Source: Escherichia coli (GTDB lineage Bacteria > Pseudomonadota > Gammaproteobacteria > Enterobacterales > Enterobacteriaceae). From it: a stretch of 64,000 nucleotides of DNA. The notes beneath the pieces were generated by a model. The model was not told the origin of the DNA, searched no databases, and saw only the letters and a list, made by a program, of their open reading frames with translations. Shown one piece after another: positions 1 to 997 of this stretch. Made by a program: the position numbers and the translations under genes. Within the stretch, counting starts at the first letter, position 1, and each line of letters opens with the position of its first letter. The stretch is from the NCBI RefSeq assembly GCF_965641715.1, contig NZ_OZ282453.1; one strand, 5' to 3'.

Positions 1-377
1 AATTAATGTCGGATTATTTTTTCCGCGTGTCGCTGGCGATGCAAAACAAAACGCTGCTTTTCTCCCTCGATGACACGCTGGTTAATAACGCCCTGCAAAC
101 ACTGAATAAAACCCGCCCGGCAATGGTGGATGTAATACCCACTGATGGCATCGTTCCGCTCTATATCAATCCACAAGGCGTGGCGAAACTGCTGCGTAAC
201 GAAACGTTGACCAGTCTGCCGAAGAATCTCGAACCGGTTTTTTATAACGCCGCACAAACTTTATTAATGCCGAAGCTGGACGCTTTATCTCAACAACCGC
301 GTTATGTCATGAAGCTGGCCCAGATGGAACCCGGTGCCGCCTGGCAGTGGCTACCCATAACCTGGCAGCCGCTATGA
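1..377 (+). CDS. yfaA: DUF2138-family protein YfaA, 3' portion; gene begins upstream of the window
   Basis: Frame is open from the window edge to TGA at 375-377 (C-terminal peptide ...LPITWQPL). Sits directly upstream of yfaT/yfaS as first gene of the conserved cluster; stop overlaps the yfaT ATG (ATGA). Confidence 0.7.
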
Positions 378-997
378 GGAACGGGCTGCTGGCGCTGATT
401 TGCTGGCTGTGTTGTGTTGTTGCCCATAGCGAAATGCTGAATGTCGAACAATCCGGGCTGTTTCGCGCCTGGTTTGTACGCATTGCACAAGAACAGCTCC
501 GCCAGGGGCCAAGTCCACGCTGGTATCAGCAGGATTGTGCGGGCCTGGTGCGATTTGCGGCGAACGAGACGCTGAAAGTTCACGACAGTAAATGGCTAAA
601 AAGTAACGGTTTATCTAGCCAGTATTTGCCGCCAGAGATGACGCTAACACCTGAACAGCGGCAACTGGCGCAAAACTGGAATCAGGGGAACGGGAAAACC
701 GGACCCTACGTAACCGCGATTAATTTGATTCAGTACAACAGCCAATTTATTGGCCAGGACATAAACCAGGCGCTGCCTGGCGATATGATTTTTTTCGATC
801 AGGGCGATGCCCAGCACTTAATGGTCTGGATGGGGCGTTACGTCATCTACCACACCGGAAGCGCCACGAAAACTGACAACGGAATGCGCGCAGTCAGTCT
901 GCAACAACTTATGACATGGAAGGACACCCGATGGATACCCAACGATTCCAATCCCAATTTCATTGGCATTTATCGTTTAAATTTTCTGGCGCGATAG
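374..997 (+). CDS. yfaT: DUF1175-family secreted protein with NlpC/P60-like Cys/His motifs
   Basis: ORF 347-997; start adjusted to ATG 374 ([12 protein letters not shown]..., 207 aa). N-terminal hydrophobic signal-like segment; DCAGLV and H-x12-H motifs resemble those of MepS in this same window. Confidence 0.8.

Follow-up and report, generated by a model that had tools for sequence, protein, structure and literature searches.

The yfaT gene of Escherichia coli very probably (at a rough probability of 0.85) encodes a secreted periplasmic ortholog of Pseudomonas aeruginosa MagC, which has the NlpC/P60 fold with a full Cys-His-His triad, acts as the partner of the macroglobulin YfaS and would anchor the macroglobulin complex at the sacculus through its groove. 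This reading is based on homology, fold, residue equivalence, conservation and gene pairing, all of which were observed; peptidoglycan binding, the absence of detected hydrolysis and the protection conferred by the operon are taken from published work on MagC, and we infer that the E. coli protein acts like MagC.

In the P. aeruginosa operon magABCDEF, MagC (PA4490) is encoded in third place, and the centrepiece, MagD, is a type II macroglobulin devoid of the thioester (PMC3735191, PMC5764988). The sequence-only reading of the E. coli DNA had proposed that the partner of the macroglobulin is a papain-fold amidase, or an adapted derivative of one, tying the cluster to peptidoglycan. The proposal was correct, and had been published for MagC in 2021; the NlpC/P60 nature of YfaT and MagC has been known since then and is not new. 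The crystal structure paper of that year reportedly found that MagC binds peptidoglycan, that it did not cleave it and that its catalytic residues adopt an inactive conformation. A 2023 JBC classification of papain-like enzymes, in the statement it devotes to the family, places an 'inactive DUF1175 (PF06672) binding to peptidoglycan' in the NlpC/P60-CHAP-amidase cluster, and there cites the MagC structure paper for the inactivity (PMC10318531). The present analysis adds the conservation of the triad across the family and the finding that the MagC-macroglobulin pair also occurs with thioester-bearing macroglobulins.

The yfaT gene and its product

The window, a stretch of 64,000 nucleotides of E. 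coli, contains yfaT at positions 374-997 on the plus strand; the open reading frame list and the annotation of strain YZMc3-1, which is the nearest RefSeq match, give identical coordinates, and the product has 207 amino acids followed by a stop codon. RefSeq names it 'DUF1175 domain-containing protein', and no NCBIfam model matched it. The DUF1175/MagC family model PF06672, which carries the label 'MagC' in the protein collection searched, matched residues 20-205 with 195.9 bits (E 8.8e-58), above its gathering score of 27. The best match in the PDB was MagC itself (7BK8; E 2e-103, residues 21-206, about 75% identity). YfaT resembles this solved member over its full length, in both sequence and structure, and is orthologous to the P. 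aeruginosa protein. An identity of about 75% is very high for a comparison between Enterobacteriaceae and Pseudomonas, and would fit a horizontal transfer that took in the entire macroglobulin operon.

A signal peptide with a putative cleavage site is predicted from the sequence at the N-terminus (374-433, plus strand), and residues 1-20 have low pLDDT in the structural model of YfaT. MagC also has an annotated signal peptide (PMC3735191, Table 2). No canonical lipobox was found in the YfaT N-terminus, so the mature form is probably a soluble periplasmic protein of roughly 21 kDa. A literature search on E. coli yfaT, DUF1175 and the yfa genes returned nothing mechanistic and no experiment on YfaT.

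Relationship of YfaT to NlpC/P60 hydrolases

The same window encodes a canonical NlpC/P60 murein endopeptidase, MepS (Spr; 56050-56616, minus strand), which matches PF00877 at 1e-37 and whose homologs are named murein DD-endopeptidase/LD-carboxypeptidase. The mepS gene lies about 55 kb from yfaT, outside the yfa cluster. All the motifs by which the sequence-only reading had likened the two proteins are present. The QDCAGLV motif of YfaT (residues 53-59; 530-550, plus strand) has the same cysteine context as IDCSGFV of MepS, and its C55 (536-538) corresponds to the catalytic cysteine of NlpC/P60 proteins. A segment at 776-862 of the plus strand, corresponding to TGDLVLF and the following region of MepS, extends from PGDMIFF (residues 135-141) to the two histidines (residues 146-163; 809-862) and forms a beta-hairpin. 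Its H148 (815-817) and H160 (851-853) are the equivalents of the NlpC/P60 catalytic histidine and the third residue of the triad. The candidate triad of YfaT is thus C55, H148 and H160 (H148-x11-H160), and that of MepS is C94, H145 and H157; the histidines are indeed 12 positions apart in both. Only the distance given for PGDMIFF, about 95 residues past the cysteine, was loose, since the motif starts 80 residues, and H148 lies 93 residues, after C55.

The spacing between the cysteine and the first histidine is 93 in YfaT versus 51 in MepS, which implies an insertion of about 42 residues in YfaT. This family-specific insertion, absent in MepS, separates the Cys helix from the beta-sheet, lies roughly at residues 68-112 (575-709, plus strand) and includes H70 and W74, which are nearly invariant.

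Comparisons at the family level extend this resemblance. The Pfam model NLPC_P60 (PF00877) matched YfaT residues 49-162, a region covering all three triad residues, with E 3.8e-4 and 20.8 bits; this does not reach the gathering score of 23, and YfaT is a relative within the superfamily rather than a member of PF00877 in the strict sense. The same model matched 65 of 82 diverse DUF1175 members at E<=0.01, the best at 1e-8. When a DUF1175 profile built from the 82-sequence alignment was compared with all PDB sequences, MagC came first and was followed almost exclusively by NlpC/P60 cell-wall hydrolases, including Acd33800, CwlO, RipB, SagA and Spr, with their DC(S/A)G, GDL.FF..H and YH(A/T)G motifs in register with the profile. 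The region of YfaT encoded at 776-862 aligns to GDLVFF..H..YHAG of these hydrolases. Against MepS alone, the DUF1175 HMM scored 11.0 bits (single-comparison E 1.6e-5), compared with 8.5 for the best of 2000 MepS shuffles, and the alignment pairs C55 with C94 and H148 with H145.

A coincidental match of short motifs between proteins of different fold would agree with two results. YfaT and MepS could not be aligned significantly by pairwise BLASTP, and hhalign of DUF1175 against a MepS alignment gave a probability of only 46% (E 2e-4) over 28 columns, in the GD...H strand. The BLASTP result is not evidence against homology, because the relationship of the two proteins is too distant for this method. 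The MepS alignment used with hhalign was drawn from the best 120 matches, all of them close orthologs with 79-93% identity, and was too shallow; weight was therefore placed on the Pfam, PDB-profile and structure comparisons. The chance explanation is refuted by the NLPC_P60 family scan, the DUF1175 HMM comparison with MepS and the structure comparison described below, and its probability is practically negligible. The resemblance between YfaT and MepS is homology.

Predicted fold

The structure of YfaT was modelled by AlphaFold2 on the 82-sequence alignment, with a mean pLDDT of 91.9 and a pTM of 0.87. In a Foldseek search with this model three MepS chains came directly behind MagC, with probabilities of 0.99-1.0. 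MepS and the canonical NlpC/P60 endopeptidases share only 12-21% identity with YfaT over 100-126 aligned residues. The close structural neighbours are all peptidoglycan peptidases or amidases. Structure prediction and comparison with MepS, which had been suggested as a check, thus found the NlpC/P60 fold, and together with the profiles and the MagC structure they bear out the papain-fold reading of this DUF1175 partner of the macroglobulin.

The YfaT model shares the papain-like alpha+beta core of MepS, of PF00877 (MEROPS C40) and of solved NlpC/P60 domains in general. As in these proteins, the order is C...H...H, with a cysteine in D-C-(S/A)-G at the N-terminus of a helix, a G-D-(L/M)-hydrophobic-F strand before the catalytic histidine, and a third polar residue, here a histidine 12 positions on, in the next strand. 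C55 is the first residue of a helix spanning residues 55-66, while H148 lies in the strand 147-152 and H160 ends the strand 156-160 of one hairpin. The two histidines are placed symmetrically about the hairpin turn and would for that reason be cross-strand neighbours, their adjacency in the model being deduced from the hairpin register.

YfaT differs from MepS not only in the insertion past the Cys helix, but also in an extra N-terminal helix, a C-terminal extension, the fact that it is not a lipoprotein, and its score below the PF00877 gathering threshold; moreover, in the classification statement quoted above, the DUF1175 family is described as binding peptidoglycan, not cleaving it (PMC10318531). 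In this respect YfaT is similar to RipD (Rv1566c, PDB 4JXB), which was among the weak Foldseek matches of the model and whose NlpC/P60 domain is described as adapted to peptidoglycan binding and not hydrolysis. RipD has lost its catalytic residues. YfaT and MagC, unlike RipD, keep all three triad residues, and these are conserved family-wide.

Conservation of the triad in the DUF1175/MagC family

With an exhaustive HMMER search, covering 1.84 billion cluster representatives, 406 relatives were recovered at E<=1e-3. Among 82 full-length homologs with 27-53% identity nine columns are invariant, namely D54, C55, D137, H148, M150, Y159, G162, N193 and G198; four of the nine (D54, C55, D137 and H148) are canonical NlpC/P60 motif positions. 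The position of H160 is occupied by histidine in 81 of 83 sequences and by aspartate in the remaining two. For the best 150 of the 406 representatives, with each position counted over those sequences that extend across it, the cysteine is present in 123 of 125, H148 in 113 of 114 and H160 in 114 of 116. The triad is thus essentially invariant in more than 110 diverged representatives with 27-55% identity. Such invariance fits poorly with a dead enzyme and is unusual for a purely non-catalytic binding module; as far as sequence conservation can tell, the conserved triad is probably still used for something, and the 'inactive' label looks provisional.

Most of the distant DUF1175 homologs in the alignment (P0046-P0147) have 300-385 amino acids and an N-terminal extension of 110-170 residues, which is absent from YfaT and MagC and matched no Pfam family. 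Two of them gave weak matches to bacterial TSP3 repeats, and a DGxPD-like motif is present in the consensus.

The yfa operon and the macroglobulin partner

The window opens inside the yfa cluster, which according to the annotation of strain YZMc3-1 is flanked by gyrA and rcsC. The P. aeruginosa system comprises six genes, including magA, and the E. coli one, in this window and in strain YZMc3-1, five, yfaA, yfaT, yfaS, yfaQ and yfaP, all on the plus strand. The 3' end of yfaA (DUF2138; 6-377) corresponds to magB by gene order only, following the operon description in PMC5764988. The yfaA stop and the yfaT start overlap as ATGA (374-377), which suggests that the two genes may be translationally coupled. 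Downstream of yfaT lie yfaS (931-5535), encoding a type II alpha-2-macroglobulin (A2M) that is the counterpart of MagD; yfaQ (DUF2300; 5536-7185; PF10062 at 2.4e-89), the magE counterpart by gene order; and yfaP (DUF2135 according to Pfam and RefSeq; 7190-7966), likewise the counterpart of magF. The CxEQ thioester motif was sought in E. coli YfaS and is absent.

The start of yfaS is uncertain and may be ATG 916, ATG 931 or the GTG 1021 given by RefSeq. The latter falls within a good signal peptide, and a macroglobulin translated from there would lack its export signal. Translation from ATG 916 or 931 restores the signal peptide, with an overlap of 67-82 nucleotides with the 3' end of yfaT, and judging from the sequence RefSeq has probably placed the start too far downstream.

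Residues 312-374 of YfaQ (6469-6657) match the Pfam model SpoIID with 27 bits (E 7e-6; gathering score 23). The SpoIID family comprises peptidoglycan lytic transglycosylases, and this segment may represent a second link between the cluster and peptidoglycan.

Of 5426 complete E. coli genomes, 5395 contain the yfa region (window positions 1-8000). The identity is 99% or higher in only five of these 5395 and 95-99% in all the others, which makes the version of the cluster in this window a minority allele or lineage.

The yfaT gene lies immediately upstream of the A2M gene yfaS, and this arrangement is kept around homologs with 30-40% identity, at five loci (L002-L006). The downstream gene at the loci of distant homologs encodes 1050-1550 amino acids and could be recognised as an A2M by its Pfam domains (L005) or by its thioester motif (L003, L004, L006). 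The thioester sequence YPYGCTEQ is present in the downstream macroglobulins of L003 (1951-5631), L005 (2480-7123) and L006 (4371-7811). The pairing of MagC with an A2M is therefore not confined to macroglobulins lacking the thioester, and it does not fit a simple split into type I macroglobulins, found with PBP1C, and type II macroglobulins, found with the Mag operon. At L005, genes encoding a SpoIID-domain protein and a Transpeptidase (PBP-like) protein lie beside the MagC-A2M pair on the opposite strand (8044-10064), and by their predicted domains they would again place the pair in a cell-wall context.

Proposed role of YfaT and alternative explanations

In the proposed mechanism the signal peptide would export YfaT to the periplasm, and the yfaA-yfaT-yfaS-yfaQ-yfaP operon would produce it as the partner of the thioester-less YfaS. 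YfaT may bind peptidoglycan through its catalytic groove, with the NlpC/P60 groove recognising the stem peptide, and would thereby fasten the complex of the macroglobulin YfaS to the sacculus. This complex could then shield the wall from incoming peptidoglycan-degrading enzymes. Such a tether agrees with the SpoIID-like segment of YfaQ and with a 2025 study in which the mag operon was found to shield P. aeruginosa from VgrG3 and Tae1, T6SS effectors that target peptidoglycan (PMC12663445). Counted against it were the failure of earlier work to detect a stable binary MagC-MagD complex (PMC5764988), the fact that MagC was never detected in envelope fractions (PMC3735191), the near-absolute conservation of the triad, and the PF00877 score of YfaT, which is below the threshold.

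Because the triad is invariant, the main rival explanation is that YfaT and MagC are latent cysteine hydrolases, for example gamma-D-Glu-mDAP endopeptidases or amidases, which would be inactive in isolation and become activated in the macroglobulin complex or by envelope damage. It would account for the retention of the triad across the diverged representatives and for the NlpC/P60 motif positions among the invariant columns, and the sole substitute of H160, aspartate, is also workable as a third triad residue. Against this, DUF1175 is called inactive where the papain-like enzyme classification refers to it (PMC10318531), and the conserved cysteine and histidine could instead serve ligand binding or structure. 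A latent hydrolase is consequently a tentative alternative, with chances appreciably below even. It is also conceivable, if rather unlikely, that DUF1175/MagC proteins are conditionally active cysteine enzymes, either hydrolases or acyl-transferases, whose chemistry is integral to macroglobulin complexes, such as the trimming or tethering of peptidoglycan at sites of damage; this idea arises because Cys-His-His is conserved almost absolutely and because MagC is paired with both thioester-less and thioester-bearing A2Ms.

A cysteine protease or transferase acting on protein, either the macroglobulin itself or the enzymes it captures, would also be compatible with a papain-like fold, an intact triad and obligatory pairing with an A2M gene; the close structural neighbours, however, all act on peptidoglycan, and this alternative is very improbable. 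[quoted passage not shown] The legend names deletions of magB and magC, whereas the text of the same paper states that a pronounced effect followed the deletion of magB and of magE and not that of magC. This conflict bears on whether MagC could process MagD. The legend is probably a slip or typographical error, and processing of MagD by MagC is unlikely, since the main text, with MagD forms unchanged in the magC deletion, contradicts it. The reading of YfaT as a periplasmic partner of YfaS that would link the macroglobulin complex with the sacculus is preferred over these alternatives.

Implications for type II macroglobulin complexes

A molecular mechanism is still lacking for the type II macroglobulin complexes, Mag in Pseudomonas and Yfa in E. 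coli. The RefSeq name of E. coli yfaT lags behind the structural literature, which leaves the gene under-annotated. The most direct physical connection of these complexes with the cell wall is a subunit that has the NlpC/P60 fold, and for MagC this has been in the literature since 2021.
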